Shown: one piece after another, positions 28,301 to 55,300 of the stretch
Position numbering within the stretch: position 1 is the stretch's first letter
Layout: every line of letters starts with the position of its first letter
NCBI GenBank assembly: GCA_029571225.1
Contig: JAKPTF010000035.1
Coordinates: forward strand, 81,925 to 145,924
From: Candidatus Omnitrophota bacterium
GTDB lineage: Bacteria > Omnitrophota > Gorgyraeia > Gygaellales > Profunditerraquicolaceae
DNA: 64,000 bases
Direction: 5' to 3'
Made by a program: the position numbers and the translations under genes
Notes under the pieces: generated by a model
Seen by the model: only the letters and a program-made list of their open reading frames with translations
Told to the model about the DNA's origin: nothing
Databases searched by the model: none

Positions 28301-31300
28301 TTCGGTAAACCTCGAGATCCACGATGACCGGCGATTGTATTTCGAATACACCAGTACCGGCACTTCATGCCACGAATGGCCTTTCATTGCCGCGGGAGTC
28401 GAATGGTCTCCTGTTACGACCAGGACATCCCGGCGGTCTGTATCAAGCAAATCCAGAATTCCTGGCAGTGCTTGGTCCACCTGTTCGATATACCGCACCT
28501 TGGCGTCAAAATCCCCGTCTTCCCCGGCTTTATCCGTGTATTTAAAATGCACATAAAAGAAATCGTGGTCTTCCCAATGATCCCTGACTGCGGCAAACTC
28601 ATCGGCAATGGTCTGGCTGCCTCCGACCGGCAAAAGCTTCATGCCGACGACGCTTGCAATGCCCTTATAGGCGGGATACGTCGCGACAGCCGCGGGGTTC
28701 AATTGATAGATTTCGGTGAACGACGGCAGCTGGACCAGCTCATCCCAGCTGCGAAGAAGAATGCTGTTGATCTGAGATTCGCCGCTCAGCCTTCGGTGAG
28801 CCGTTTCGACGATCTGCCTGACGAGCTGAGCCGTTGATTCTGCTTCCGGGACTTTCGCCTCAGTCAATAACGCGGGCTTGCCTGTCTCCTCAGGGTCAGT
28901 ATCTTTCAGTTTGGCGCTTAAATCCCTGCCGCCGCGCAATATCAATACACCGCGATGTTCCTTGGTCACCTGGATCAGCACCTGGACCTCGCCGAATTGC
29001 AAGCCGGTAAGGCAGCGCTCCACAACCCCGGAAGAAACTTCCGTTGCGACGCGGCCTGCGCGCCGGTCAACGATAATGCCATCCCTTGCCGTTGCGAAAT
29101 TCACCCTCGCGATGACATCGCCGGGCATCAGCTTGATATTATCGCCCATTGCGTCAAGTATGCCCCGGCCCACCGCGTGGATATACGGGTCATAGCCGAA
29201 TATCGCAAAATGGCCCGGGCCGCTTCCCGGCGTGACGCCGGCGCCTGCGATCCGCGAGAGACCGACAGAACCACGGCGGGCAAGTGAATCGAGATTCGGG
29301 TGCGCAGCCTTGTCCAGTTCTGTGCCGGCCTCGCCGGGCATGTGTAAGCCGCCCAGACCGTCCATGACGAGAAAGACGATTTTGGAATCTGTCTTTATCG
29401 AAAGCCCCTTCATTTCCTTGAGATGCCGGTCAAGCGCGTGCTTCTTGACATTACCGCCGTCTTTATGCTCCGACTCTCCTGACTGCTGCGGCTGTCGATC
29501 CCGGGTGATGCGCGCCCTTCGCTCTTTCATTATATCCTTAAGATCAGCGCGCAGATTCCATATAAGCCATGACTGAATAATGACGGTTCCGATACCCAGC
29601 CACAACAGGCCCGCAGTCACATATCCATGGAAGAACGCCGCAATCGCAGGAATGACCACCAACAACACTTCATGGAACGCCATGAGGATAAACGGAAGCG
29701 CATTGAGTATTTTGTCTTCGGTGCCGCCGTCATGTTTCACGCGCGTCTGAATGCCGTACTCAAGGGCAGTTATTGCAAAAACAGGGGCTCTGCGATCAAT
29801 CATACTCAGCGGTTGCGAATATCTGGTCGAGGCAAGAAGCATGGCGGACGCCTCACAGAGAAACGCCGCCGCCCTGGCCTTTGACAGAGTGCGGTAGTTA
29901 TTTCTTGTCTCAATAGTGATTTCGAAAAGCCGGTCATGGTAGCCGGCCGGCAGAATCGAAATCAAGAGCGCATTAAGGTTCAGAAGCCGGCTTATGGCTT
30001 TTTTCGTATTCCCTGCAGATAAATGGCGGAATGCGTTAATACAGGTGAAAACAGCGGCGCCATATTTCACGATCGCGGGAATCTGTTTCTGCGAAAAGTC
30101 CTCGCCCCGCAGCAGCAGCGCATTCGGCAACTCCACTTTCCAGCAATAATTTGACTTCAGATCATGCCTGTTGTACACGTTAATGTCTATGCGCTCGCCG
30201 TTGAATGCTGAGGTGAACCGCCGCGAGCGCTGGCGGTCTTCGGTGATCACGAGCACGTCCACGTCCGAATACGCCGGGCACATGATGAAAGACCCAAAAA
30301 CGTACACCGCCGCTGCGCGTGATCCGGGTTCAAGACAATGAAGCACGTGTTCGACCCCTCCGGTCTGTACGAATGTTGCGATCCGCGCGCAGATCGCCTT
30401 CTGCAGCGATTCATCCACGGTATTGCGCCAGAAATATCTGCCGGCCAATTCAGCACGTATTCCTTCGATCGTGCCGGCCTCTGTGCCGCCGTCTTTGCAA
30501 AGCGCGCTGATATCTTTCATCATGAGACTTGAGCCGATAAAGCCCCTGCGCTTCCAGAATACAAGCTGCTGCTCGTAGGGCGCGCCGCCATCAAACCATA
30601 CATTCGCCTTATCGGATCCCGGATACGGACCTTCGGCGACCTCGATCATCTTATTTGATGCACCGATGAAATCAACCTTGTGGCCGCCAAGGCTCAGGAT
30701 CCGGTCGCCGGCACTGAGCAGCAGCGTATCAACCGGCTTACCCTGGGGAGTATACACGGTGTATTTGACCTCGCCGCGGACTACGAATATCAACTCGATC
30801 CTGGGCTTCTCGATCGGGGTCGGGCAATGCGGCCGGCCGATATCGTTCTGTGCCGGGGACTTGGTGCCGATGCCCAGCGCGAACGCAGGATTCGTCATAA
30901 CCTTGTATTTTTCAAATTCAATGCCGCTGCGCAGGACAAGCGCATGGATCATCCAGTAATAATAGGAATCCATGACAAGCTCCGGAGTGAATGACGCATC
31001 CCGGTTCTCATTGTAATCGGAAATGCTCGGGCTGGTGACAACAGGAAGGTGTTCGGTTTGATATACGATCGACACGACCGACTGCTCTGAGGCAATGATG
31101 GAACGGTATGAAGTAAGGATGGTGGCCAGATCTCCCGCCGACAGCTCGATGTGCCTGCTTTTTTCTTGCGAATCGAACAAACCAAGGGTGACCTTGCCGG
31201 ATTCGACATAAATGACATCCTGGGCCGGCGGGCCCCGGGTCCGCGGCCGGTATTCCTGTCCGGGCTCCAGATCAATGACTTCCAGTTCAACAGGCAGGCC

Positions 31301-34300
31301 CTTTGGCTCCAGAATGACGCCGCGGGAATCCCTGCGGATAACGATTGCCTGCGTTCTGCCGTTATGATCCACAATGGCCTGTCCAAAAGGTTCAACGCCA
31401 GCATTGCCCCCGTCGCGAGGCTTTGTCCTTGCAGCGCCGCAGTTCACGCAACCCTTGAACTCGCGCAATTGGCTTATCCTATCATATGCCTTCAGGAATA
31501 ATTCGACATCCTTCTGCGGCAGAAGCCCAATTTCCACATCAAGCTCATAACCGCTTGCCGGCGCGTGGACCGCGTTGAACATAATACCCGTAATCCTGGG
31601 GCTCAACCCGCGCGCCTCCGCTTGCCTCATGAACTTTGCAACAGCGGTATTCGCATATTTTGTCTGGTTCCATACAACATGCCTGAGGCTTCCCGGATGC
31701 GCACGGTTTATATCGGTCGCGCCCACGACGACGGCTTTGACAAAATCCTGCTCTGCAACGGCAAGCGGGTTTTGACCTTTCAAAAGCACCGTTGCCTCTT
31801 CGACGGTCAGATGGAATGCTTTGAGAACGTCTTCACGCGGCCTCCTCCTGACGAGCATCCACGGCTGCATTTCCTGCCTGCTGTATTCGATCCAGAGGCT
31901 GAAAGCCGCAACGGACAACTCCCCGGGATATAGGTTCTGTATCGCAGCAAACCATTGTTCGAACCGGACGCCGTCTTTGTCAGCAATGATCTGCCTGCCT
32001 TCTTCTATAAGGGCAGGATCGATTATTCCTGACCGCTCCAGTGCATCGAGATTCGTGGTAAATGCCGTATGGCCCCAGCGTTCCAAAAGATGCTGGATGG
32101 TCACGGGAGCGATCGCGCCCTTGAATACCCTGAAGCTTGATCCAAGGCGCTGATTCAGTTTATAATTGAGCGGCTCGCTTAATCCTCCCCTATCCCCGCC
32201 TTTGAGCCAGATAAACGAAATCGTGCCGACCGTGCGCACCAATGCGCCCAGGAGGTTTTCATCTTTATGCTCCGATACAATAATTCCGCCGTCGTTCTGA
32301 CGCCTTGACGCGCCGGCAACAGGCAACCATACCTTGTTGCTGCGGCGCTCAACCCGCGCCTTCAACGCATCCAGCATACTCCATGCCGCGGCGAATTCAG
32401 GTGATTTCTTCCCGCCGTTATATGTTTTACGATATGTTTCAATGTCTGAAACCAAAACCGCCAGTGATGCAATCGCCGATGTTCTCAGACGCTTTGCTTC
32501 CTGTCGGAATTCATTATCGTTAAGCATGATACCACGATACGCGTAAAATTCCCTGTTCCAGCCATCGCTGGTCCGGTCGAGCAGCCGGTCCAGCCGCATC
32601 GCCCAGAAACCGCCGTTCTCTTTCGGCCGCATAGCATAAAATTTCCGGTCCTTTTCATCGCCGACCTCATTGAAACCAAGGCCCCGCACCAGGCCGCGCA
32701 GCGGGCCGAGCGTAAGGTTTTCATAATCTTCCTCGTACGATGCCCGGCTCTCGTCTTCCGGCGACCACAGATAATACAGACACGCCCATTCAGGAGCAAG
32801 GCCGAATAGCGCGCCCAGCTGTGCTGCCCGCATGAATGTCCGGGCGGTGATCTCTTTCAGGACATGTTTGCCGGGGATATACGATATGAAGTTGATCCCG
32901 CTGTTGAACGGATTACACGTAAATATCTTCACGGCGTTATTATCGAGCCTGAAATTCGTCACGCCGATAAGCACGCCGTCAAAGTAAAATCTGCCGCGTA
33001 CCCGGAACGATTCGAGCCGGCCGGTTTCAAGGGACTTGCTGGCCTGTTCAATGATCCATTGCTCTCTGATTTCAGAGGAAACGATCGGCCGTGTAACCGC
33101 CGCGCTCAGATCCAGGCCGCCGTCTTTCTTTCCTTCATATTTGCCGGTGACGATATCAGGGTCTTCACGGTGATCTCCCAGATATCTGGACCGGGCAATA
33201 AACCTGCCGATGACTCCGAACGCATCCATGGAAACCCCCGCGAGCGCTGCAGATATGCCGATTGCCAGAATAATGAACGCCGCAGCCGGGAAGCTGCCGA
33301 TAAGCATGCCTGCGCCGACGCTGCCAGCCATGATCATACCGACGAAAACAATAAAACCTTTTGCATTCAGGCCGTACGGGAATTCCTGCGCCCATTCCTC
33401 AAGCGTCTTTTTGTCCCCGCCGTCAAATGTCTTTTCGAGCAGGGCGAACCATTCCCTCGTGCCCTCCGTCTCACTACCCATCCAGATCATGCGGCAATCG
33501 GTCCTTGTAAGATCAGGCTCTTCCTTATCCACGCTGATAATGTATTCCAACTGGGACTTTGTCACTTGTTCTGAAACCGGTCGGGCATTTCCGCCCTTAA
33601 AGAATTCGTTGCCGTGATAGATATACAAGGCATCCGGCCCGATCTGGGCGATCACATCATTGACTGCAACTGCCTTGTTGACGCCGGCGACGTTGATGTC
33701 AACCGTGACGCCGGTTGCGCCGCCCGCTTCAAAAGCCTCATACGGCAGACGCAGCGTCCGGAAGAAATCGTTGAATTCCGCTGCGATAGACCCGCGCGCC
33801 TCGGGCGGAACCGGCTTGAACGCAAGCTGGAACACCGGTTCATTGGTAATCGCGCGCGTTTTCGCATCAGGCCGCAGCTCTAATCCCGGTTTTCGCCAGG
33901 CGTACGACATGCGGCCGGCGGCACGCGTCCCGAAAATGAATCCCGGATACAGGTATCTATGCGATACTTCGCCTTTTTCATTGATCTTTTGATTTTCCGC
34001 CAGCGCGATATCGACGCTGTGCCAGAGATCGATGCTCACTTTACGGGCGATTGGCTGGATCATTTCGATATGCACCGGATCAACGGTCTTGCCGCTGCGG
34101 TATGAGATATCTTCGATACGCGCGCCATTCTTGAAGGTGAACTTCTGCGCGGCGCCGTTGCCGTAAATAATGAAGTTATCGAAGAGCTCGACCTTGCCCT
34201 GTTCAGCAAGCGCTTTCAACAAAGGCGTGACAATACGCTCGTTCTGTTTCAAGATATCATTGCCGGAGATGATGGCGACAATGAACCCTTTCTCCAGCAT

Positions 34301-37300
34301 CCATATGAACGTGTCCACCAGGCCTGCTTCTTCGATGGTCTCTTTATGATCCTTGCCGGTTTTAAGCAGCGTCTTGTCAACGTCGAAGATCAAGACGACC
34401 TGTTTGCCCTGTCTGCGGTATCCGGCAGCGCGCTCAAGCACAGGCTGTAACCTTCTTCTGATCTCTTTGCGCTCCCCGCCGTCCTTTCCCATGGTCACAA
34501 TTACATTATGGTTGTGCCCATCATAAGGGATTATATTACCTGGGATAAGATTACCCGTCTTTCTATCCTGCATCGATATAACACCGCTGGATACTCCGTC
34601 AGGATTCAGGATTTCAATATAATATGTTTTACCCCTGAATTTTCTTTTTACCCTATATCCAGCCCAATTACTCGGAATACATGGATCGACAACCAAACCA
34701 TCATACACAGGCTTGATCCCCAGCATAAACTGCATAACGGCCCTCAAATACCACGCGGCCGCGCCGGTAAGCCAGGACCCGCCCGCACCCTCTTCTCCAT
34801 TTTCTCCGTTCACGACCTGTGATAAAACATGGGGGTCCGACTGATATTTTATCGGGTCATTCAGGCTGGCAACAGGCGGGAGCACAGCTCTGATGACTTT
34901 GTAGGCGTCGTCAGCACGGCCCGCTTTTAACAAAGCGGTTATTCCCATTGATGCAGCGTGGACAAAACAAGCACCATTCTCTTTAAAGTACGGAGGATAA
35001 AAATAACAACAGCCTACCGGACAATTTTCCTTATCATAGGCAGGATAAAAAAGAAGAAGGCCCGCATTTCTGGATAAACTCATTATAGCGTTAACACAGT
35101 CCTCTTCTATGTCCTGATATTCGCCGCTCAGTATCGCATATACCTGAGACAAAAGATGAACACGCCCTTCCACATTAGTCGAGGTTCCAAACGGGTTACC
35201 GTTATCGTCTTTGCCGGCAATAAAATACTTGCCTTTAGAATCCCAATATTGTCTCGCGGCTATTTCTTCTTTCGCTTTCTGTATCAACTCCTGATGTTTA
35301 GTTTTGTTGATCTGTTTCTCGCTCGCGCTCACAGCATCTTTATCGCTGATCTCGATCAAACAATTGCACATGAGCAGAAACATCATAGCCACCATGACAG
35401 ATTCGGCTTTTGACTTCTTTAATTTTTTAAGGTAATTGTCTCTATTATAGCCCTCGGCGTAGTTGCCCTTATACTTGCGTTGATTGGCATCATTCCAATC
35501 CGCGGTTAGCAAAAGTCCGAAATTTCCCCAGGAGAATTCAATTGCTTTCATGAGATGTTGATATACCGTATCGAGCTTGTGCTTGTTATCCGCATATCCT
35601 GCCAATTTACCCAGTATTGAGATATCATTCGTTTCTCTAATGTACTCATAAATCGCCAGGATCATCCAAAGATGATCGTCAGAGAACGGAACCTCATCAT
35701 GTTCCTTAGGGTCGCTTGTCAATACGTCAAACGCATGAATAGCACTGCCATTCTGAAGATGTGTGGCCCGCAATAGCAATATTATTCTTCTTTTGGCAGC
35801 GGCTGCGTCCAAATGGACGTAACCAATGATATCCTGCCAGGAATCTCTAGTCCCCATACCCCGGCTCTGGCCGGTTTTCAGTTTATCTACGGAACGAGAA
35901 AATATATAATTTGCCCATACCTGCCACTGTAACCAACTGTTGGCCATAAATTCAAGCTCTTTATCTGGAAGCTCACACTGAAATTTCTCAGTCTTCCCAC
36001 TAACATGTTTTTTCAATGCTTCAAAAGCAGTATTAACATTTTCGGGATTCAGCCATTTTTCCGCTTGTTCCCAGCAAACCTCTTCATCTTTTCCAATGCC
36101 CAAAGCAAAGATGATTTCTTTCCGGCAGCCTGCCTGATTTGCCGGAGCCAACTTGATGCGTATCTTATGGCTGCCTACGCCAAACCCGCCTGTTGATTTG
36201 TCATTGCCGGGCAACAACGGATCCTCGACCCACGCCGGACACGATAAGTCTCCTGCGCCGGTAAATCCTTTCAAGCTGGTTTGTACGGCTACGGGGCACT
36301 CGCTTACGGCAAAAAAAGTAATTGGCCATTCCTGCTGGTTTTTCTCATACCAAAGCTTTTCCTTTAACCGGAACTCAGTCTTTCTATAGATTATGCGCTT
36401 ATCCCCGGTTGTAAAGTTACGATATGTAAAGTTCTGTCCCATTTTTTCATTGTCCTGGGGCCCGTTAGGAAATTCGCGCAAGCTCCAGATCATCAAATCC
36501 TTCTCTTGAAAGGATTTATTCCTGAATATGACTTTTTGAATTTCGGGCGCTCCTTTATTTAATGGTATGAATATTACCTGCTCGGTCTCTATCCCATTTC
36601 TTTCAGAGATGATACGGAGATATCCGAATCCAATGCGCGTTTCATACCACTTAAATTTAGCCCTTTCCTTTACGATAGGCTTAATACTCGCCGACCAATA
36701 CTCCTCTGGATTATTCATATCCATTAAGTAAATATACCTGCCTTGAATGCCCTCTTCGCTGCCTCCGCCGGTATATCTGGTAAGCCAATAATTGTTAGGA
36801 TCTTCCAGTGTCCAGGTAAATCCGGACCCATCGGTAAATACGATAGCATGAAGGTATCTTTTGCCGAACTTTACTCCTAAATATGTATAATAACGTGGCG
36901 CATCACGCGATATAACGACATATTCTTTAGTCTTTGTATCAAAATAGCCGACAGCGGATTGCGCAAGCTTTCCGCCGTCTTTTTCGATATCAGCAGGATT
37001 AATATTACCGGCAGGCCCCAAATCATCCGCCACGGTAGATAATGGGGCCTGCGTATCGGTAATATGAGTCTCTGAATCCTTAATATCGACGGCAGGCCCC
37101 AAATCTTCATCCGCCACGGTAGAGAGACCCAGGGCCTGCCTGATAGAAATCAAGACAATTGCCGGAAATGCGATAAAGGCGAGATACAACACAGCCAGAA
37201 GTTGTACTGAAGGATTGTTGATCCTGCTGAGGGAAAGGTACGGAGCGATGATCCTGACAAAATCGTTTTGCTGCCTGACCGCCGGAGGCCCTCTGGATCC

Positions 37301-40300
37301 GGGCAATCTGACGGATTGTTCGGGTGCAATGACTGCATCAGCAGGATGGACAAGGCCTTCCTGTTCGATGCCGTGGTCAAACCGGCAGCTATCTTTCATA
37401 AGCTTTTCGGCAATGACCTCGTTGTGACGAACGGACTTCACATCCCCGCCGTCCTGCTCGCTATTATCGTCATAGGGAGGCTGGGCTGCCAGGCCTGCCA
37501 GTTTTTCCTTAAAAAATTCCATCGTGCAGAAAATGCAATCGATCGCGCCCGATCTCCTCTGAGCCAGAACCATGGTATATGCCTGTGGCTGGGCCTGCAT
37601 GATACGGCGAGCCGCCTCTATCGCTTCCGGATCGGTCAGCACGCAGAACCGGATGGCACCTGACCGGACCATGGCGATATCGTTATAATCATAATAATCG
37701 AGTCTCATGATTTTCTGAGCCGGATCCGACACGTTTTCGCCGGTCGCGCCGTTGCCAAGCAATGCGTGATACAGATCGAATGCATCTTCTTCGCCGCCGT
37801 CTTTCTTGCCGTACCCCCAGTAGTGTGGATCAAGTTCTATGGGCATATACGTCACCGGAGCATATACGATCGGTTTATACACGAATGCGGGGTAAAGCTG
37901 CGGCTTGAACGCCGCTTTGAACAGTTCCCGGTTCTTTTCGGTATCTTTCATGCGCACGAAAACGCCTGCGCCGCCCTGTTGCTGACGCAGCTGTGTCAAT
38001 GCTTCAAACGAGGCCTGCGCGAAGTAATCACGCACCAGGTTGGGGCTGATACGATCCAGATATCCTTTGGCAAACCCGACTGCCGGGTTGCCCGGGATGA
38101 ACATTTGAGGCACCAGTGACACGAACAGAACGAAATAATTCTGCGGCTGGGCCAGAATCTGCTGGAAGTTGATATGCTGGTCGCTGGTGCCCTGCAGGAC
38201 CCAGTCCACCCCCTGGCTGATAAGGAAATCCCGCAGCGAATAAAATTTCTCGCCTTCGAGATAAAGCACGATGACGAACTTCCGGCCGTGCATACGTGCA
38301 AACTCCTTGCCCATGCTCAACAGGGCAACCATGTCGCCTCTGTTTTTGACCGCAGACGGAAACGCGAGCTCGGTGATATTGGTCCGGACCATCCCCCTGC
38401 CCGCCTGAATCCTGGTTTCTTGTACCGCTTCATCAATCGCCCCGGCATTGCGCCAGGCCGCTTCCTGAAGGGCCTTCATTCTGCTTTCAAGCAGGCCTTT
38501 GCCCAGCTCGACGAATGGCTGGCGCAGGTACAGATTCTCCTGCAGGATCCGTGTCGCAGGATTCTTCAAATCATTCAGATCGACATCGGCGCCCGTATAA
38601 CCTGAGGCGAGCAGCGCGCGGGCGATCAGCCGGTCGCCGTTCAGGTTGGTCAGGCCGTAGAAAATGGTAAACAATGCTGCGTAGATGAGGGCCACCTGCT
38701 GCCCGGTCATGCCGGTAAAATCAACGGCAAGCGGAATATTCACCACGTTGCCCGATATGTGCGCGGATGAAAGGTTAATCACCAGGGCATCCGGTTTATT
38801 CTGATAATATTGTTTCTGGTCGGGCCAATCGCGCGCGCGCACGGCTATGAGGTTAATGAACCCTTCCTGCCAGATGCTCTCGTTATTGTTCTGCTCCTGC
38901 GCCTTGCCGAACCAGAACAGATGATCCGGCACGACAAGCGCGATATTCCGGATGCCTTGATCCATGATCATCTCATTGAGGATGTTGGCGCAATGGCGGC
39001 CTTCGAGGACCTGCGCGATGTTAGCGCTCCGCGCCTGCCAGTATTGCTCCGCGTCAAGATCATAGAACGCCAGGAATGTCATCATGTGCAGATCGCCTGT
39101 CCAGCGGCCGGCGACATTGTCATACATGGCGCCGAAGCCGGGAGCGTTCTCTCCAAGCTCATCGCCGAGGCCTGAATTCCTGATGAATGCCGACAGGCGG
39201 CTGACTTCAGGCCTGTCCACAGTTTCGAAAAACATGTTGCCCAGGGCTACCCCGAGGATCGCGGTTACGTCTTCCCGGCTCATGCCCAGCGCGGCTGCGT
39301 TACGCGTAATCAGCTCGATCAGACTCGTTGTGCCAAACCGCGCTTCATCCACTTTGAACAAATCGGCACCCGCCCGCTCCTTGCCGTCGATAAAGTTCAC
39401 CTCATGGAGCGTATTGAGCACGGTATGTGCGAACCGATCGCCGTCGAATCCTCGATCCAGGGCGATATTCTTGAGGAGCGCCTTGAATATATCGATAAAG
39501 ATCATCATGGTTTCATCGGTCGATCCTGATTTGGAGCTGGGGATCACGGCAACCTGGTCCCAGTCGATCTTAAACGCTCTCAGATGCTTCCTGATAAACG
39601 CCTCGTAATCCACGCCAAGCTCGTACGCGCCGACGATCTTGCCCGATGTCGAATCTACGACTTCGAATCCGCTCGCAATGCCCTGGAACGGCGTGTGCTG
39701 GCCGCCGATGCCCGGCTTGATGACCAGCTTGATCGGCTTACCTATAATGCGGCTGCGGTTTTTGAAGAACGCTTTCATGTCGTTGACAGTTTTGATAAAA
39801 GATTCCTTCCCGGTCTCCTTGCCATCCGGACTCCGCGTGTAGTATCCCTGCGAGCCGGTCAGGGCAAAAGAACCGTCCGGCGACGCGCCTTCAGGCACGC
39901 CGTATCCCAATTCGTTATGCCCGCCTTTCATGAACAGTTTGCGGATTTGCTCATTCCCGCGGGCATCAAGCGGCGTGCGCAGCTTTTTACCGACGATGCG
40001 AGCCTCTTCTTTCTCGCCGCCGTCTTTTTTACCGGTCGCAACAACAGCCTTGCCGTTCTCCTCCTGGATCATTTTCAGGATCACCAGTTTGAGGAAATTG
40101 ACCAGCTCTCTGGTATAGTCGTGCGCGCCTGAAATGCAATGCGCGATCTCTTCGATATACGTCGTCAGGAAATCGTCTTCCTTTTGCAGGCGGCTGCGGC
40201 GGATGCCGATCGTGCGCGTTGCCTCGTCCCAGAAGCCCCAGGTCATCATGTCAACCTCTCTGCCGCGTTCCAGTTCCCATTTGCTCAAGGTCCGTTCAAA

Positions 40301-43300: not shown

Positions 43301-46300
43301 TTTGTACTGTCCGAATTCCCCTCCCATAAACAAAAGCTGCTTGCCCGGCATGGTGTACTGCAGACCAAGCAACAGGCGCAGGTTGGCGAACCGCTGCCAC
43401 TGATCACCCGGCATCTTTTCCAGCAATGAATGCTTCAGGTGCACCACTTCGTCGTGGGACAAAGCAAGCACGAAATTCTCACTAAAGGCATATGCCAGGT
43501 AGAAGGAGAGCCCGCCCAGATAAAAACCACGAAATACCGGATCAAGCTTGATGAACTCCAGGGTATCGTGCATCCATCCCATTGCCCATTTCATGGAAAA
43601 GCCCAGGCCGCCTGCGTACACCGGCCGGGAGACCATCGGCCAGGCGGTGGATTCTTCGGCGACGGTGAGGATGCCCGGATAACGCGCGTGCACCACCTGA
43701 TTGAACTGCTTGAGAAAATGCACCGCTTCGAGATTCTCCCTTCCGCCGTACACGTTAGGTATCCACTGTCCGTTTTTGCGGGAATAGTCGCGATAAAGCA
43801 TCGAGGCTACCGCGTCCATGCGCAGGCCGTCGATATGGTACTTCTGCAGCCAGAAGCAGGCGTTGCTGATCAGGAAACTGCGCACCTCATTCCTGCCAAG
43901 GTTGAACACCGCGGTGCCCCAATCCGGATGCCTGCCTTCCCGGGCATCGATATGCGAATACAGTTCGGTGCCGTCAAAATAGATCAAACCTTCTTCATTG
44001 AGCGGGAAGTGCGCCGGTACCCAGTCCATCAATACGCCGATCTCTTCCCTATGCAGCCGGTCCACCAGATACATCAGATCCTGCGGGGTGCCGAAGCGAG
44101 AGGTGGGCGCAAAAAAATTGGTCACCTGGTATCCCCAGGACGGAACAAAGGCATGCTCAGTAACCGGCAAGAGCTCCACGTGGGTGAAGCCCATGTCCCC
44201 GATATATTCCGCCAGCTCATCCGCGGTCTCCCGATAAGTCAACCAGCGATTATCCTCTTTCCTGCGCCAGGAACCAAGGTGCATCTCGTACACGGACATC
44301 GGGCTTTCCAGCGACTGACGTGCCGCACGGGTATCCATCCACTCCCTGTCCCGCCAGTCGTAATTCAGCTCCCAGACAATCGATGCGGTGGTCTCGGGAT
44401 GATCCTTTGTTGGAAACTGGTTAAAAAAGGCAACTGGATCTGATTTCAGACGGGACTGGTGGTCAGCGCCAAGCACGTGGAACTTGTACAACGCTCCCAT
44501 GCCCACTCCGGGAATGAAAGTCTCCCAGACCCCTGCGTAGGTTTTGGACATTGGCGCGACGGATCGATCCCATGAGTTAAAATCCCCGCACACGCTCACC
44601 TGCCGGGCATGCGGCGCCCACACCGCAAAATGCGTCCCCAGCAACCTGCTGCGGTCGAGTACCACATGCGCGCCCAACTTGCGGTAGGTGTCATAATGCG
44701 TTCCCTCGACCATGAACAGGTGCTGGTCGAATTCAGTAAAACGCGGCAGAAGTCCTTCCTCGTTTCCGCCATCCTGCTTAGCAGCGGAACCGTCCGGTTG
44801 CGCCTGCGGGGCAGTGCGCGACATCCGGATCGTCAGTACGGATTTCTCCGGCATGTTCAGGCTGATCCGACCTCCATCGTTGAATTGAGACGCAGACCCC
44901 GAACCTTCACCCGCCACGGTAGATTGACCCAAGGCCTGCGTTATCTCAATCGGAACAAGAAGCCGAACGCGTTTAATATCATATGTCAATCCTGCACGAC
45001 CCTTGACCTCAGCAAGAAGAGCTTCCAAAACTTCCAGTGAATGCCGGTTTATCAAAGCTATTTCCCTCTCGTACCCGGCCTGATTAAGCCACATGCCCCG
45101 GTAGACATAGAACCATGCGTACCAGTTACGCTCGGCAGCCGCAAAAAGATCTTCCGAGGACAAGGCCCAGGCCCCGCTACTATGCTTGCATTCCAGGGCA
45201 CGCAAGGCCGAATCGAGTAGCATGTGCCTGTTTATCAGGCGCAATCCCAGTCCGCGACTAAGCGTCCGTAATGGCAGGAGCAAATTGTCTTCATAGTCAG
45301 GATTGTAATCCGCGCGATGCTCATCTTCCACTCCCCAGATATAGTACAAAGTCGCCCAGGGGCTGTCCCATCCCAGGGCCTGGCCGATCTGTATCGCCCG
45401 CAACAGCGTGCGCAGGGTGATCTCCTTGCCCAAATGCTGACGGGGAATATAGGAAACCAGATTCTTCCTGTCCCAGCCCGGCGGGTTGCACCCGTAGATC
45501 CGCGCGCCGTTCTCGCTGATGGTGACGTTGGTCAAGCCCACTGCCCGCTCCCCGGCCCGGAAACCAGGCAGCGCATAAATCTCGATAAAGTCCTTCTTCT
45601 CATAGTCCGGACCGACGCGACGGATCATCCATTCCTCGCGGATATCCGAAGACCGGATAGCCTGCTCCTGCGCCCCACCGTCCTTGCCATGTCTGTTTTT
45701 CATTATCTCAAACAACCTCGTTCGAAGATCCTTTTCGGTCAGGCACGCTTTCAACATATCAAGATCGTCTTCGCTAAAGACTGAAGACGCGCTTGAATAC
45801 CCCCTCAACTTATACTCACCATACTCTGCCTTCGTAAAAACGAACGAGGATTCATCGAATATCTGGATTTCAAAGTACCGGTTAGCATACGAACGGGAAC
45901 GATCAAAAGGAAATCTTTCCGGCATAAAGAAGAAGCAATTTGCCCGGGTCGATCCGTTTCTGGTAACTACCCTTTTCTCTTTCAAGCGGAAACCCGCCGC
46001 TGCCATTTTTGCACAGATATCGTCTATCCCAATCTCCCGTTTCAGTATTCTCATCCCTATGTAATCGTTCGCAATCTCTGCCCCCCGGCAGAGCAGTCCA
46101 AAGACATACGCATAACATGCATCGGGATTTTTTAACTGCTCCGAATTTAACGGCACTCCGTACTTCTTGTTCAGGCGCAGATAAATACTCAAGGCTCCCT
46201 TGATTCGATGGTCTATCCTAACAATTTGTTTTGTTTCTCCAGTCAAAGCGCGCGCGATATCATCACGGATCTGGCAACTGACACCTTTTGGATCGATATA

Positions 46301-49300: not shown

Positions 49301-52300
49301 GAAATTGGTGACCGCCTTAAGCACGGCGGCATATCCATCGGCAGAGCTTCCGGCAGGAATGCGGTTCAAATGGTACTGGGAAAGGTCGATTTGATCGAGC
49401 AGGCGGGCAAAGGCCCTGACGCCGATGTGTTCCGAGGCGGTGATCACAATGATCTCGTAATCGCGTTCGCTGCGATTGGCCAGGGTGAAACCGGTAATGG
49501 GGTTTTCGCCGACATTATTGTTCAACACGACATGGCTTGCGGAAGAAAGCGTGATCTGCTCCGGAGGACCACGCATTCTTAGAATCCCCATGGTCGCGGA
49601 AAGCTTTGCGCTGTCGGTTTCGGCATTCCAATCTGCAGAAATATTTTTTGGCCAGGGCATGAACCTGACGACTTGCAGTCCCGGATACAGCGAAGCGAAC
49701 GGGATCACATCGGTGGTCTCGCCCGGTTTGATCGTAATTATCTTAAAATCGATATCCATAACCAGAGACACTTCGGGATTGTACACTCCGGCAGCATCCT
49801 GCTTGAATATCACATTGCCTTCTTCATCAGTCTTCAACTGTGCGGCCATAGCCGGCAAGATGTGGGAATAAACCGCCCAGCCGTTACCCTGTGTGACCTG
49901 CGCCGGCACCAACGCATACCTGCCGGAGACAATCGTTTCTCCGGAGGACTTGAACAGCCTGGCAAAAATATCCTTGAACGTCCAGTCGATACTCGGGGCG
50001 ATGGCATCGGTGTTACGCAACGTATGCGAATATCCGGCGGGAATACGCACCAGGCAGCCGAACGGCATCTGCTGGCTGTATTTCGCTTCCAAAGCATTGA
50101 TGTCGGTTTCCGAGATAATCCTGGCCAGCAACGCATGTTCTTCTACGCCCAGATAAATACCCTGACAGCATTTCTGCAGCTCATCCGGAGAAATGCTTGC
50201 TGCATACAAAGCATCCCGCAGCAACACTTTGGCCAGGCCGCTGTCCGGAGCGAACCCGTATTTGATGGAGAGCTCGTGGATCAAACCGTTGTAATCCACG
50301 AAAGCGATATTCTCCGCGCCTGAAAAAGTCAATTCTTCTGCTTCATGGGTGTGGATACCCTGCCTGCTTGCGATCCGATTCTCCCCCTCGGAAAGACTCA
50401 AACCCAGGGCCCGGGACGACGTCTGGCTGAACGCGGTATACTGCCGCTTACTATCTTGCACCCAGCGACTGACCACAAATGCTGAGGGAATCACGGAAAC
50501 CTGTTTGTCCTGCGTCATATATATTGTATCGGCATTGTCCACGATCGCCGCGCGGATGTAGAGGGCACGAGTGTATTCCCGGAGGAACGTGCTGCCGTTG
50601 CGCATGGCGATCGTTTCCGCCAAGAGGCCGAACGTCTTGCTCAAGGCGAATCCCTGTTTGCCAAGGCGCAAGGCCTTCTGCCAGAGATCCCGGTCATTGA
50701 TCCTCCAGAGGGCGGGATGCTTCTGCGTATCTTCCCTAATCTGTTGCTCCAGTGCTTCCAGCTGCCTGATCGCTGCCAGCACATCATCGTATTCCTGGAT
50801 ATCGAGGAAACTTTTCAACTCATCCAGATAGTGCGGGAGCTCGCCGCCGTCCGCATGCACGGCCTGCATCTGCGCCAGGTACTGCGTGGTTAAATCCTTT
50901 GCCGGCAGACCCATGACCAGATCCGTGTTCCTTACGTAAATCTTCTTCACCTCCAGGGTTATCACTACCACCGCGCCAAACAACATCAGCAGGTCATTAA
51001 ATCCACGCATGCCCTCGGCAAACCGGGTGATCTTTAAGAAAGCATCTGCAATTACCCCTCCGTCGAGAGACAGGCCGGCATGTTCCCTGGCCCAGCGGTA
51101 GATGTTGATATATTCCTTGACCGGTCCTCGCCAGCTCCAGTCATGGCCTGCGGCGTTTTCCGTGACCCTCTCCCAGTGCTCGGGAACCCGGAAGGTGTTG
51201 ATCGCCCGCCAGATCGCCGCGTACAATTCCTCGTCGTTTATGTTCTCGAACAGCCAGCCGTTGCCCTTACCGGTGAACCATTCGTATTCCTGGAAATTAT
51301 CCGCCAGTCCGCCGGTGCGGCGAACCACGCCGGGTACCCGGTTGATCAGGGCTACCACCGGCCGGGTGCCGAACGGCTCAAATTCAGAAGGATACAGGAA
51401 GATGTCCAGGGCGTGGAACACGTCGCGCTGCTCGTCAGTGGTGTACTTCTGCTTGAAATTTACATTCTTCGGCCAGCGTGCCTGTAGCGCCTGTAGTTCG
51501 TCAGCGACCTCGGTGGCGTATTGGCTTGAGGTGTCCCCCTTGCCCAGGTACATGAACTGTACTCCGCCATTGGTCTCCAACAGCAGGCGGTCGATCGCCC
51601 TGACCACTTGGCGTACACCCTTCTGTTCGTCGATACGCGCGACCATACCAATAAGGGGAATATGCTGATCCACCTTGAATCTGAGCTTCGCCTGCATCGC
51701 CGCTTTTTTGAGCGGTTTCTCCTGCTTGCTCACCGGCTGCCAGATCGGATAATATATCCCGTTAGGAATACCGAGCAGGTCGCCGATGCGCGCCCTGTAC
51801 GCCTCATGCAGGCCGCTGCCTCCGGAAGGCGTCATCATCTCGTCGCGGTTAGTGCGGGATACTGCATTCAATTTGTCCGCGTGGGTGATCGCCCCGCGCA
51901 TCAGGCAGAAATGATGCTCGCTTTCCGGCTGGCGCATGCCGAACCAATGTTCACCATTGATGCCAAGCTCTGGGAAGCGATTTCCGGGGATCCAGCCGGC
52001 GGTGTGCTTTGGATTGTGCACGGAGAACAATGTTGCGGCCTGCGAAATAATCGGATCGTTGCGGTACTTGGTCTTGACAAACACCGGCACCAGCGCAGCC
52101 GGCCAATCGTTGGCGTGCAACACCTGCGGCTGCGGCATCTCGCCGGCTTCAACCAGAGCCTTGACCGCCTTGAGCGCGCCTTCGGAAAGTCCCACTGCGA
52201 AGTTCAACTTATCGCCGGAATACGGCTGTCTGAACCAGGCACTGCCTGCGGAGGTATAATAGGTGGTACTGCCTTCCCGCACCTCGCTGAACCAACCTGC

Positions 52301-55300
52301 CTCTTCCAGGAAATAATAATTTACGTTGCCGTTAGTCCCCTTCCAGATACGGCATGGCAACTGTTTATATTCTATATCCACCATACAGGTGATTCCGGTA
52401 TTCACGAGCATGCTCTCATCCACGGCATCATACTTATACAGGATCACCGATACGTTCAATCCGAAATTCGACAGGGCAGTAGCCAGTTCGCCGCAGACGT
52501 CTCCCAGGCCGCCGGTCTTGAAGAACGGTTCAGATTCAGGCGTGACGATCACTACATTTTTCACTCCGTTGGGATCGAGCAGGTTGCGAATGCGGTAGGT
52601 AATATCCTCTGCGAACACCGCGCCTTCGTTATCGCGGATATGCTCCTGGATCTGTCCAGCGATGAATCGCAGCAGTGCGACCACATCCGGGTTGGCCAAC
52701 ACGTCTTTGATCCCGGCGTATTTGCGTTTGCTATGCGCAATGCTCTTGAGCAGAGAATTAAGTTTTACAAATTCCACACCAAAGATTTCGTCAGTGTGCA
52801 GGGTCACTTGGGCGGCCTCCGGGATGACGTAGGCAAAGACATGGGTAAAGGTATTCTCGATCATGCCCTGCTGGATGAAGTCGCGCTGGATCCTGATCCC
52901 CCGCTGCGATGTAATACGGATAAGATGATCCGCCTGAACCTTCATCCCCAGCTCCTGTTGCATCCGGGATACCGCTGCCTGCTCGGGCGTTTCTCCAGCC
53001 AGAACATGGCCGCTGGCCGATGCCTCCAGCAAGCCAGGATACATCTTCTTGGAAGCAGCACGTCTTTGCAGCAGGATCTGGCCGTCCTTGTTGATCACAA
53101 AAACATACACGTCGCTGTGCCATTCGCCGGCCAGATGCATCTGAGTCTTGGGCATCACCAGGCCGATGGCATTGCCTTCGGCGTCCCTCACGTCCAGGTA
53201 CTGCTCGCCGGTGACTCCGGCGTAACCAATGATCTCGAAATCCAGCTTCAGGCTGTTGATGATATGTTTGGCCAACTCGCGGGAGAAGGCAAAGGCGGAA
53301 ATCGTTCCGCGCATTTCCGCTTCCCGCAACCGCTCGATGATTCTGCTCACCGCAGGGGCTTCCGATTCGAGGATCTGCCGAGATTCCAGGCCAGCAAAAT
53401 CGTCCACGCCCAGGGCGCGCAATACCATAGCCACAAACGTCGCCTCGTCCACAGCCAGCGGATCCGCTGCCTCGAGCATCGCCCGGGCCAGCTCATCGGA
53501 AATCCCCTGGTTGTTTAAAACCCATTCCCGGGCATGCAGCCTGCGGAAGATGATAATATCCTGCTTTGCCTCTTCCCCGCCGTCGGCGGAGTACGCCATT
53601 GCTGTAAATATACCTGCAGACCCGAAAATACCCGCCACGGTAGGTTCCCGGGCCTGCAGAAGTGTAACCGTATTAATCCCAGCTCTCAGATTCTTGACTC
53701 TCAACCAGATCACCACCACCGCGCCGTAGGCGATAAGACCGACCTTGCGAAGCGCCAGTCTGATCATGCCGAGGATGCTGTAGACGGAGCTCTTCAGGGC
53801 CTGCGCGTTGCTGCCGCCGTCTTTCGGATCCGCAAGGATACTCTCGCTGGCAGTAACGATGATCAGCTCATAATCATCATCGCTTGTATTCTTGATTTTA
53901 AATCCCGTAATCGTATTTACCTGGTCGTTATTATTCAGGACGATCTGCGAACCGCCAAGGATATCAGGGATGACCTCTGGAGGACCTCTCGCTTTTATAA
54001 CCGTCAGCAATGCCTTTAATTTCGACCTCTCTGCCGCCATATTCCAGTCCCCGCCTATATTCTTCGGCCACGGCATGATCCGCACGATCTGTAAACCGGG
54101 ATATAACTGGGCAAAATCGAATACCTTTGTCTCCTTGCCGGGTTTCACAGCTATCATCTTAAACACAACATCAATTATCTTATCCGCAACAGGATTATGG
54201 ATGCCGTCTTCATCCTTGGCAAATAACGGCAACCCATCTTTATCTGTCTTTATAGTGGCTATCATATGATCCAGAATATGAGTGTACAATTCCCATCCAT
54301 CGCCGTTCTCGATCTCCGGAGGCAGTATCTGAGGCGCCCCTTGGGCTTCACCGCCACCCTGTACCTTAAATACCTGCAGATACAAGTCTTTGAATGTCCA
54401 GTCAATACTTGCTATCTCCTTATTAATATTGCGGATGGTATGTATGTATTCTGCAGGCGTCCGCACCACATACCCGAATGGAACCTGAGATGTATATACC
54501 TTCTCCAGTTCATTGATATCTTCATTTTTCCACATATCCCATACCACCCGTTTTTCCTCAGCGGTCAAGGTTATACCCTTAGTCTTGATATAGTCATCCA
54601 GCAATGCCTCGTTTTTCTCAACGCCGCTGGTCGTCCTTTGTTTTTCCAGGTCATACAGCATATCCATGCCCAAGGCGTTAAAAATGTTCTTGTTCCCCGC
54701 AACGTTGTATTTCTCAAGCAAATCCTTGATCAACTTCCCGTAATCCATATACCCCGTATAATCCGACCCCGAAAGAGTCCTTTCGGCTATCTTGGGATGT
54801 TTATGTATCCCTTGCCGGCTCCCTTTCGGGTTCTCGGCTTCGGTCATGCTGAACCCTCTTGCCCGGGAAGATTCAGGATTGAAGCTCGGATACTGCCGCT
54901 GGCTGTCGCCGTCTTGGCCTTTAACCAACCGATTCACAATGAACTCATATGGGATAACCGTGACCTGCTGCTGCAAACTCATATACAAGAGGTCTTCATT
55001 ATTGATAAATGCCGACCTGACAACCAACTCCTTCGTATAATCAAGAGTATCGGCTGTGGCGCCGAGTTTCTCAAGGTCTTTGCCTAAAGCGTCAAACGCA
55101 ACATTGATGGTCCGGCCTGTGGATTGCCTGTCCAATGACGCTTTCCATCTGTCCGCACTGTTCGATTCCCACTGGCTGCGATCGTTATAAATCCCGGCAA
55201 CTTCTTGCTCCAGCCGCTCCAACGCTTCTAATGATTGAACCGCAGCGTTAAACTTCGCTGTATCCAGCAATTCTTTCAGCTCGCGTACAAACCGGATTCT

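Follow-up and report, generated by a model that had tools for sequence, protein, structure and literature searches.

Giant genes that join many enzymes in one chain have been described from the phylum Omnitrophota in two preprints (West-Roberts et al. 2023, bioRxiv 10.1101/2023.11.21.568195; Nielsen & Lui 2026, bioRxiv 10.64898/2026.06.07.730766), the latter of which defines a class 1 of 'multi-enzyme metabolic clusters'. Scattered transmembrane (TM) helices, membrane-anchored cytoplasmic domains and possible cleavage are already known for these proteins. One chain or cut pieces was posed as an open question by West-Roberts et al. (2023), who called the lack of known cleavage points an obstacle and reported C39 (double-glycine type) and S8 peptidase domains in full-length proteins, the C39-like domains near the N-termini (bioRxiv 10.1101/2023.11.21.568195). 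Here, we analyse a stretch of 64,000 nucleotides (referred to as the window) from a Candidatus Omnitrophota bacterium (assembly GCA_029571225.1, contig JAKPTF010000035.1, positions 81,925 to 145,924). It is spanned by a single open reading frame (ORF) with five short hydrophobic segments (ins1 to ins5), each bracketed by the tripeptide Asp-Gly-Gly (DGG). An earlier note on this DNA had regarded these five as modular anchors that stitch a giant protein to the membrane. We found that the motif [K/R]DGG delimits nearly every module of the giant ORF, and likewise of related giant genes. To the reading that the hydrophobic segments include portable membrane cassettes in a giant chain cut at [K/R]DGG we assign a probability of roughly 0.5. 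The sequences show the single ORF, the excess of DGG and its position at the borders of modules and of synteny, the hydrophobic grade of ins1 to ins3 and the conservation of two of these, ins1 and ins3, in another giant gene; what we infer from them are the insertion into the membrane, its topology, the cleavage and the protease that performs it.

The giant ORF shares with the described Omnitrophota proteins the phylum, a length of more than 20,000 amino acids (aa), scattered TM helices and many enzyme families, with a dominance of sugar metabolism (GT5 starch synthase, GT1, NUDIX, HAD, methyltransferase); an earlier suggestion is that such proteins are cleaved into several products. New with respect to the two preprints are the DGG delimiter, the cassette-wise breaks of synteny at DGG and the conserved portable membrane cassettes. 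DGG has 0 occurrences in the preprints, no module boundary or cleavage point is defined there, and TM helices packaged as separate portable cassettes, as found here, are undescribed in both. Our literature search returned no paper in which polyproteins are discussed for giant genes of Omnitrophota, or in which KDGG is connected with cleavage in such a setting.

Small hydrophobic peptides are familiar components of viral polyproteins, examples being flavivirus 2K, alphavirus 6K and picornavirus 2B and 3A. They resemble the situation described here in having one or two TM helices between soluble enzymes, short recurring flanking protease sites and a role in membrane tethering. In contrast, the Omnitrophota chain, for which cleavage is presumed, belongs to a cellular organism, is about a hundredfold longer and carries metabolic instead of replicative enzymes. 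There is no sequence relationship, and the analogy is one of working principle only. Cyclic beta-1,2-glucan synthase is a protein of about 3,000 aa with a fixed architecture of GT84, a TM region and GH94. It has in common with our locus a cytoplasmic glycosyltransferase and a GH94 phosphorylase in one membrane-anchored chain. However, it contains no recurrent delimiter motif, and its TM helices form one integral block and not separate cassettes.

Frame 0 of the reverse complement is free of stops over all 64,000 bases of the window, every other frame contains hundreds of them, and the plus strand carries only short ORFs (standard bacterial code). Since the whole window is stop-free in one frame, it represents an internal piece of one minus-strand gene:

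2 to 64000, minus strand: internal part of the giant ORF, 21,333 codons without a stop, open at both ends.

Residue i of this ORF corresponds to window positions 64000-3(i-1) down to 64000-3i+1. The giant ORF is 100% identical to the fragments HOU36063.1, HOU36401.1 and HOU35908.1 of a Candidatus Omnitrophota metagenome-assembled genome (3-6.5 kb contigs), which places the window among the known Omnitrophota giant multi-enzyme genes. It qualifies as a member of this class, as it originates from an Omnitrophota genome and exceeds the minimum length of 10,000 aa. The chain is covered by a large variety of Pfam families, prominently those of sugar metabolism (PF08323, PF00534, NUDIX, HAD), and TM helices are scattered over it in two blocks (aa 370-2050 and aa 12765-14060) and in ins1 to ins3. 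Pfam and NCBIfam profiles detected guanylate-kinase-like P-loops, NUDIX/IPP-isomerase-like domains and two glycogen synthases. The ORF also encodes GHKL ATPases, a GH94 phosphorylase, a cofactor-independent phosphoglycerate mutase (iPGM/ApgM), three HAD phosphatases, GT2 synthases with a large TM block, a polysaccharide deacetylase, GH9, a methyltransferase, amylase-family domains, a debranching enzyme and a full-length GlgB branching enzyme, which scored 905.6 bits against an NCBIfam equivalog cut-off of 741. SecA-DEAD, C39, S8 and dockerin domains were not found by Pfam or NCBIfam in the window, which holds an incomplete gene. In public annotation, the ORF is represented by fragments of 1,100-2,200 aa, each labelled by one domain.

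The ORF has the layout of a polyprotein: complete functional proteins are concatenated in one frame, with a recurrent short site between them. The part of the gene within the window consists of about 38 cassettes split by [K/R]-D-G-G, many of which are complete enzymes. DGG is the most over-represented tripeptide of the giant ORF (37 occurrences versus 6.7 expected, Poisson p 4e-16) and is directly preceded by K or R at 21 of these sites, while GG dipeptides as such are not enriched (110 versus 112 expected). None of the 37 DGGs lies inside a Pfam envelope, with envelopes covering 22.8% of the residues (p 7e-5). Recognised enzymes lie at short distances inside their flanking DGGs, namely 26 and 23 aa for iPGM, 9 and 44 aa for HAD and 42 and 79 aa for GH94. 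For GlgB, the fit is as follows:

41000 to 44800, minus strand: GlgB module, aa 6410-7062, between DGGs with margins of only 19 and 15 aa.

Two pairs of internal paralogous modules described below align from DGG onward (B1 with B2 from residue 1, which is the DGG, and A1 with A2). Examples of DGG outside the inserts are located at window positions 42815-42817, 44771-44773 and 28181-28183.

Relatives of the ins1-iPGM-HAD region were identified by a profile-free HMMER search, which returned P0003, P0004 and P0006 with 66%, 63% and 47% identity, respectively. P0004 is a fragment of 4,965 aa from a further giant gene of Omnitrophota (locus L001), and P0006 is a complete gene of 713 aa. A metagenome scan yielded two further 21-kb stretches, each forming one stop-free frame: L004 from activated sludge (iPGM 70% identical) and L005 from the 897-kb contig Ga0074198_1000004 (62%). 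Word-index searches for close relatives of the window returned same-sequence fragments only, two genome-contig scans were empty, and a word-index search with the ins3 alignment gave no match. DGG is strongly over-represented in these giant genes as well, with 14 occurrences versus 1.3 expected in P0004/L001, 18 versus 2.8 in L004 and 15 versus 2.4 in L005. Pooled over all four giant genes, this amounts to 84 versus 13.2 expected, with K or R at position -1 in 53 of the 84. In eight stand-alone ApgM loci, where 0.2-0.5 occurrences are expected each, we found a single DGG (in L032, 0.32 expected). The median DGG-to-DGG module across the four giant genes is 293 aa, which is about the size of an ordinary bacterial protein.

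The boundaries themselves are conserved. In P0003, P0004 and P0006, the iPGM core is preceded by a DGG at a distance of about 20 aa and followed by another after about 10-15 aa, and both are present in all four polyprotein-type iPGM copies of the alignment. Stand-alone ApgM enzymes fit between these limits, starting about 20 aa downstream of the first DGG and ending about 10-15 aa short of the second. DGG is kept at homologous boundaries in copies that are 47-70% identical, and the neighbouring linker residues vary. The giant genes are partly collinear, with entire cassettes present or absent between them, and for 18 of the 19 BLASTP alignment ends between them the distance to a DGG is at most 15 aa (p 2.5e-22). 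P0003, for example, is without the 254-aa module and ins1, and different cassettes are joined at its DGGs. The occurrence of DGG at both module and synteny boundaries indicates that it delimits evolutionary and structural cassettes.

P0006 (L002, positions 303-2444, Logan SRR22388321) starts with a signal-peptide-like N-terminus, followed by KDGG, iPGM, LDGG and 230 aa without assigned function. This layout demonstrates that the DGG-flanked module design is also found in a protein of ordinary size.

At the nucleotide level, the marked codon uniformity of these sites is expressed in GACGGCGG, which occurs 28 times in the window versus 3.3 expected and is present at 26 of the 37 DGG sites; GAC and GGC are the dominant codons at DGG in all four giant genes. 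We considered a nucleotide-level signal at DGG and rejected it, as codon use does not differ significantly from that in the same contexts elsewhere (Fisher p 0.05-0.44). Asp before any Gly is encoded by GAC in 73% of cases, and the first Gly of any GG by GGC in 64%. This bias is general to Asp-Gly and Gly-Gly in these genes and therefore explains the uniform GACGGCGG, so that DGG is selected at the amino-acid level. The context-dependent codon choice, seen in the window, L001, L004 and L005, would avoid GATG and GGAGG strings within the ORF.

The membrane grade of the five inserts was judged by the Kyte-Doolittle 19-residue mean (KD, KD19), the Hessa biological scale, the length of uncharged runs, the hydrophobic moment and a TopPred-like GES scan, all calibrated on segments in recognised soluble enzymes of the same ORF. 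The maxima of soluble domains were KD 1.97 and GES 1.67, both in the GH94 core, and a HAD segment reached KD 1.81. Because the default cut-offs of the TopPred-like GES scan over-call in soluble enzymes, GES was used only after this calibration. The inserts, their brackets and their apolar segments are located as follows:

29453 to 29731, minus strand: ins1 cassette, aa 11424-11516 from DGG to DGG, between a 254-aa unassigned module and iPGM.
29723 to 29731, minus strand: DGG at aa 11424, ins1 bracket.
29630 to 29692, minus strand: ins1 helix 1, aa 11437-11457, FILMAFHEVLLVVIPAIAAFF, KD19 2.31, GES 1.53, with an embedded His-Glu.
29552 to 29614, minus strand: ins1 helix 2, aa 11463-11483, AGLLWLGIGTVIIQSWLIWNL, KD about 1.6-2.0, GES 1.75.
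29453 to 29461, minus strand: DGG at aa 11514 (K-DGG), ins1 bracket and start of the iPGM module.
33116 to 33424, minus strand: ins2 cassette, aa 10193-10295, between a 353-aa unassigned module and module B2.
33416 to 33424, minus strand: DGG at aa 10193, ins2 bracket.
33296 to 33358, minus strand: ins2 helix 1, aa 10215-10235, KD 2.23, Hessa -0.2, GES 2.21.
33227 to 33286, minus strand: ins2 helix 2, aa 10239-10258, after an S-F-P turn, KD 2.26, Hessa -0.41, GES 2.12.
33116 to 33124, minus strand: DGG at aa 10293 (K-DGG), ins2 bracket and start of module B2.
36971 to 37453, minus strand: ins3 cassette, aa 8850-9010, with an 80-aa polar N-terminal part, one TM helix and an acidic tail.
37445 to 37453, minus strand: DGG at aa 8850, ins3 bracket.
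37142 to 37207, minus strand: single helix of ins3, aa 8932-8953, VQLLAVLYLAFIAFPAIVLISI, KD 2.67, Hessa -1.67, GES 2.14.
36971 to 36979, minus strand: DGG at aa 9008 (K-DGG), ins3 bracket and start of the GH94 module.
50843 to 51064, minus strand: ins4 cassette, aa 4313-4386, between GlgA and module A2, a paralogue of ins5.
51056 to 51064, minus strand: DGG at aa 4313, ins4 bracket.
50954 to 50992, minus strand: apolar core of ins4, aa 4337-4349, LLMLFGAVVVITL, KD19 1.80, GES 1.03, 13 residues and thus short for a classical span.
50843 to 50851, minus strand: DGG at aa 4384, ins4 bracket.
53576 to 53821, minus strand: ins5 cassette, aa 3394-3475, between module A1 and a NUDIX-GlgA module.
53813 to 53821, minus strand: DGG at aa 3394 (K-DGG), ins5 bracket.
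53702 to 53743, minus strand: apolar core of ins5, aa 3420-3433, VGLIAYGAVVVIWL, KD19 1.84, with K/R on both flanks.
53576 to 53584, minus strand: DGG at aa 3473, ins5 bracket.

All ten DGG triplets were thus confirmed where the earlier note had placed them; it had the frame right and left the minus strand unstated. It had also located the inserts between soluble enzymes of cytoplasmic type, and the flanking modules do look so. The DGG brackets, which it presented as a feature of the inserts, instead delimit almost every module of the ORF and of the related giant genes. Its description of the segments as mostly strongly hydrophobic helices is borne out only in part: membrane-grade helices are present in ins1 to ins3, ins4 and ins5 are weak, and the description is wrong for ins3, whose helix accounts for just 22 of 158 residues.

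Two apolar helices of at least 18 residues joined by a short turn were found in ins1 and ins2 only, and ins3 contains one helix. The helices of ins1 are of intermediate strength, weaker than those of ins2 and ins3, with HGYVT between them; helix 2 has a 39-residue uncharged run and is followed by a basic tail with 8 K/R. The DGG at aa 11514 that follows is conserved in P0003, P0004, P0006 and L005 and reads K-GGG in L004. Both helices of ins2 share one 44-residue uncharged run; its AlphaFold model, of low confidence (pLDDT 60.6), shows a 21-residue helix (insert residues 21-41), a 5-residue turn (I-G-S-F-P) and a helix from residue 47 onward. The polar part of ins3 carries the motifs SRGPP and APYxSLS, and its acidic tail (window 36977-37130, aa 8957-9008) a duplicated STVADxDLGPA, in the form of a tandem STVAD(E/D)DLGPA duplication that is present as a single copy in L004. 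In the enzyme-string part of the ORF, the three strong membrane-grade loci all fall into short DGG-DGG cassettes, a class of cassette that accounts for 7% of the residues (p ~4e-4); we therefore consider the modular packaging to be real.

By comparison, the uncharged apolar stretch of ins4 and ins5 is limited to 13-14 residues, and on the Hessa scale none of their 19-residue windows falls below 3 kcal. Their cores score like buried GH94 and HAD segments of the same ORF (KD 1.97 and 1.81). The AlphaFold model of ins5 (pLDDT 59.5) is mostly one long helix and is too uncertain to decide on a TM role. A Gly/Ala-rich uncharged stretch at the C-terminus of ins5 reaches GES 1.74 at a KD of about 1.1, and its counterpart in ins4 is polar. 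The GAVVVI core of both represents a case of a recurrent element, GA[VLIM][VLIM] ('LGA-hydrophobic-hydrophobic'), which follows an amphipathic helix at most 40 aa past DGG at 12 of the 84 sites versus 2.1 expected (window aa 2854, 3394, 4313, 10570 and 12223; L004 aa 212, 2940 and 3822; L005 aa 3124, 3816 and 4601). Its occurrence at the starts of large soluble modules argues against a TM role for ins4 and ins5. These two are not convincing TM anchors, and represent paralogous helical cassettes of about 75 aa. Autoproteolysis of the SEA type at 'G/SVVV' was considered for this element and dropped, as GAVVV has no Ser after Gly.

A comparison of the inserts with each other, as the earlier note had proposed, revealed homology for one pair: ins4 and ins5 are related (z 5.3, 0 of 300 shuffles), every other pair is unrelated, and a common origin of all five was rejected. 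No insert matched a Pfam family, even at E = 10.

Counterparts of two inserts were found in another giant gene. The ins3 counterpart in L004 (aa 675-787) is 49.6% identical and likewise bracketed by DGG; the helix segment LAVLYLAFIA is identical in 10 of 10 positions, and both cassettes share the motifs SRGPP, APYxSLS and RQAxGLSTVADxDLGPA. In L004 this cassette follows a complete citrate synthase, and in the window ins3 precedes GH94. The ins1 hairpin has a counterpart of about 30% identity in front of iPGM (L004 aa 3273-3350). The Glu of helix 1 and the His of the following loop are kept (window His-Glu, L004 Tyr-Glu), and the junction of hairpin and iPGM is KGGG and not KDGG. No counterpart of ins2 was found in L004, L005 or P0004. 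Further DGG-TM-DGG cassettes are present in P0004 (aa 1434-1548) and L005 (aa 3898-4130). In the reading that we favour, ins1 to ins3 are small portable membrane cassettes, ins1 and ins2 as hairpins and ins3 as a single span. The citrate synthase of L004 (Pfam positions 1-356 of 357) lies between two DGGs within aa 270-787, followed by the ins3-like cassette, and represents an enzyme of the tricarboxylic acid (TCA) cycle within a giant ORF.

A simple charge count found 8 K/R in the C-terminal flank of ins1 and the pattern R-x-x-x-R-x-R in that of ins2. Judged from the sequence, hairpins with both ends in the cytoplasm are most likely for these two inserts. The proposal that hairpin anchors preserve the sidedness of the chain can consequently be retained for ins1 and ins2, with their helix pairs and basic C-terminal flanks, and has to be given up for ins4 and ins5, which are not TM grade. 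The single helix suspected at about 37.15-37.2 kb was recovered as the one strong span of ins3. What is left of the modular membrane anchors are three autonomous DGG-bracketed cassettes with membrane-grade helices, without the other two. Anchoring at regular points is contradicted by the irregular spacing of the inserts (~920, 4,600, 1,290 and 1,210 aa), and the arrangement is not as unusual as had been assumed, since scattered TM helices with anchored cytoplasmic domains were already described for Omnitrophota giant proteins in the two preprints.

If the giant protein stayed uncut, the inserts would stitch it to the inner membrane and DGG would be a conserved linker or turn motif. The ins1 and ins2 hairpins, which preserve sidedness and carry basic flanks, are consistent with this, as are published DeepTMHMM surveys that report membrane-anchored cytoplasmic domains and about one helix per 370-1,000 residues. 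The protease search of the window came up empty, and the KGGG that replaces KDGG in L004 means that the ins1-like hairpin may stay attached to iPGM there. However, between GlgA/GlgB on the upstream side and GH94, iPGM, HAD and GT2 on the downstream side, ins3 provides the one odd membrane crossing that is predicted. In an uncut chain, this lone span would therefore place one set of cytoplasmic-type enzymes (nucleotide-sugar or glycolytic) outside the cell, an outcome that the earlier note itself had named as speaking against its intact stitched chain. The same parity conflict arises in L004, where citrate synthase would be separated from iPGM. Moreover, a passive linker leaves unexplained why D-G-G is invariant, with K/R preferred before it, at the boundaries of copies of 47-70% identity, and two of the five supposed anchors are below TM grade. 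We consider an uncut chain unlikely, and the parity conflict leads us to favour a processed polyprotein with portable membrane cassettes. The hydrophobic runs could also be part of a soluble assembly, either as buried helices or strands or as elements for oligomerisation or docking. This applies mainly to ins4 and ins5, given their 13-14 uncharged apolar residues, a KD19 of 1.8 at the level of GH94 and HAD cores, and a GAVVVI core that fits an element found in part at the N-termini of large soluble modules; the failure of all inserts to match a Pfam membrane family points in the same direction. For the inserts in general such a role is improbable: ins2 (44-residue uncharged run, GES >2.1) and ins3 (KD 2.67) exceed every recognised soluble-domain segment and equal the genuine TM blocks of the same ORF, and the polar part of a 90-160-aa cassette is too small to cover such helices.

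A further possibility, which we regard as very unlikely, is that the enzyme string is exported or delivered to prey or host, in line with a predatory or episymbiotic lifestyle of Omnitrophota, and that the cassettes translocate or insert into the target membrane. TMHMM-based surveys place most giant-protein domains outside, the giant genes adjoin a conserved secretion locus, and P0006 has its signal-peptide-like N-terminus ahead of KDGG-iPGM. No feature of the window supports export, though, and glycogen, glycolysis and TCA-type enzymes require cytoplasmic cofactors. Some of the localisations predicted in one survey were judged highly unlikely by its own authors (West-Roberts et al. 2023, bioRxiv 10.1101/2023.11.21.568195).

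A processed polyprotein, in contrast, fits the combination of an invariant tripeptide at homologous boundaries, modules of whole-protein size, complete enzymes between the sites and the reported C39 and S8 domains. During translation, the hydrophobic cassettes would bring the ribosome with its growing enzyme string to the inner membrane and keep both there on the cytoplasmic side, and a putative protease would then cut at the [K/R]DGG sites. One candidate protease is the C39 domain of double-glycine type that was reported close to the N-terminus in other giant proteins of Omnitrophota. After cleavage, the membrane cassettes would persist as small membrane proteins or, where a DGG site has degenerated, stay as the terminal anchor of the adjoining enzyme. 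The DGG-bracketed cassettes released together with the enzymes may gather them into a membrane-bound metabolic assembly, and the genes would gain, lose and exchange cassettes at their DGG boundaries. The wider generalisation, namely that the giant multi-enzyme genes are true polyproteins in which [K/R]DGG is the processing site that releases dozens of enzymes, with cassettes that gather them and shuffle at DGG, we propose tentatively and with somewhat less conviction.

Several observations speak against a processed polyprotein with portable membrane cassettes. Its generality with respect to DGG is based on a small sample of four giant-gene fragments (the window, P0004/L001, L004 and L005). Simple hydrophobicity scales over-call, with soluble-domain segments reaching GES 1.67, the AlphaFold models of ins2 and ins5 are of low confidence (pLDDT ~60), and sub-threshold apolar stretches at aa 8435 and 8623 (KD 1.47) could change the parity count. 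Pfam, NCBIfam and PDB-sequence searches found no protease domain in the window, L004 and L005, and SecA-DEAD domains were likewise not found in these three; all of them are internal fragments, and in full-length genes such domains are reported close to the termini. The motif is unlike the classical double-glycine leader, as position -4, counted back from a cut behind GG, is K/R instead of hydrophobic and the sites are not N-terminal but internal. Cuts at two tandem 14-aa units in L005 (aa 6642-6669, ~nt 19925-20008), which start with DGG, end with RVASSR and lie between large modules, would yield tiny peptides. Finally, the published DeepTMHMM surveys treat Omnitrophota giant proteins as intact and membrane-threaded.

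Among known processing systems, the C39 double-glycine sites of bacteriocin and NHLP/Nif11 leaders share with DGG the invariant Gly-Gly, which is also kept in the KGGG of L004. Classical C39 sites, however, end an N-terminal leader whose hydrophobic residues occupy positions -4, -7 and -12. The DGG sites lie inside the chain, carry Asp at -3 and, in 57-63% of them, K/R at -4 (for a cut after GG), and show no periodic hydrophobic pattern; profile searches found no cognate C39 domain in the window, L004 and L005 fragments. GlyGly-CTERM signals, the substrates of rhombosortase, resemble ins1 in that Gly-Gly stands near a TM helix that is followed by a basic cluster. In those signals, which form the very C-terminal end of a protein, GG adjoins the helix, whereas DGG is internal and 10-20 aa away from the helix. 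We rejected a GlyGly-CTERM signal for this internal position and because a helix is absent after about 30 of the 37 DGGs.

With [K/R]DGG at enzyme and synteny boundaries, concrete candidate cleavage sites are available that can be checked in existing proteomic data. DGG also gives a rational way to split giant proteins for structure prediction and expression. The question shifts from how the chain is stitched to the membrane to the role of small conserved portable membrane cassettes among cytoplasmic enzymes.

Some further features of the ORF were noted. Two long stretches are free of DGG, aa 1-2853 and aa 12742-15376 (window 58000-64000 and 17900-25800), and each of them holds a dense TM block (aa 370-2050 and aa 12765-14060). 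The G+C content is about 0.45 over window 58000-64000, which encodes aa 1-2000, versus about 0.55 elsewhere. Modules A1 and A2 (window 53822-55441 and 49421-50851, aa 2854-3393 and 4384-4860) are paralogues of about 480 aa with 41% identity and matched no Pfam or PDB family. A1 adjoins ins5 and A2 adjoins ins4, and A1 has an extra basic amphipathic stretch of 43 aa just after its DGG. Modules B1 and B2 (window 44879-45682 and 32294-33124, aa 6107-6374 and 10293-10569) are paralogues with 35% identity; the NCBI fragment over B2 is annotated as 'nucleotidyltransferase domain-containing protein'. The tetrapeptide RGPP, which occurs 7 times versus 0.28 expected (window aa 3338, 4810, 8903 and 10922; L004 aa 702; L005 aa 3884 and 4667), may be a second short linear motif, part of its excess being due to homologous pairs.

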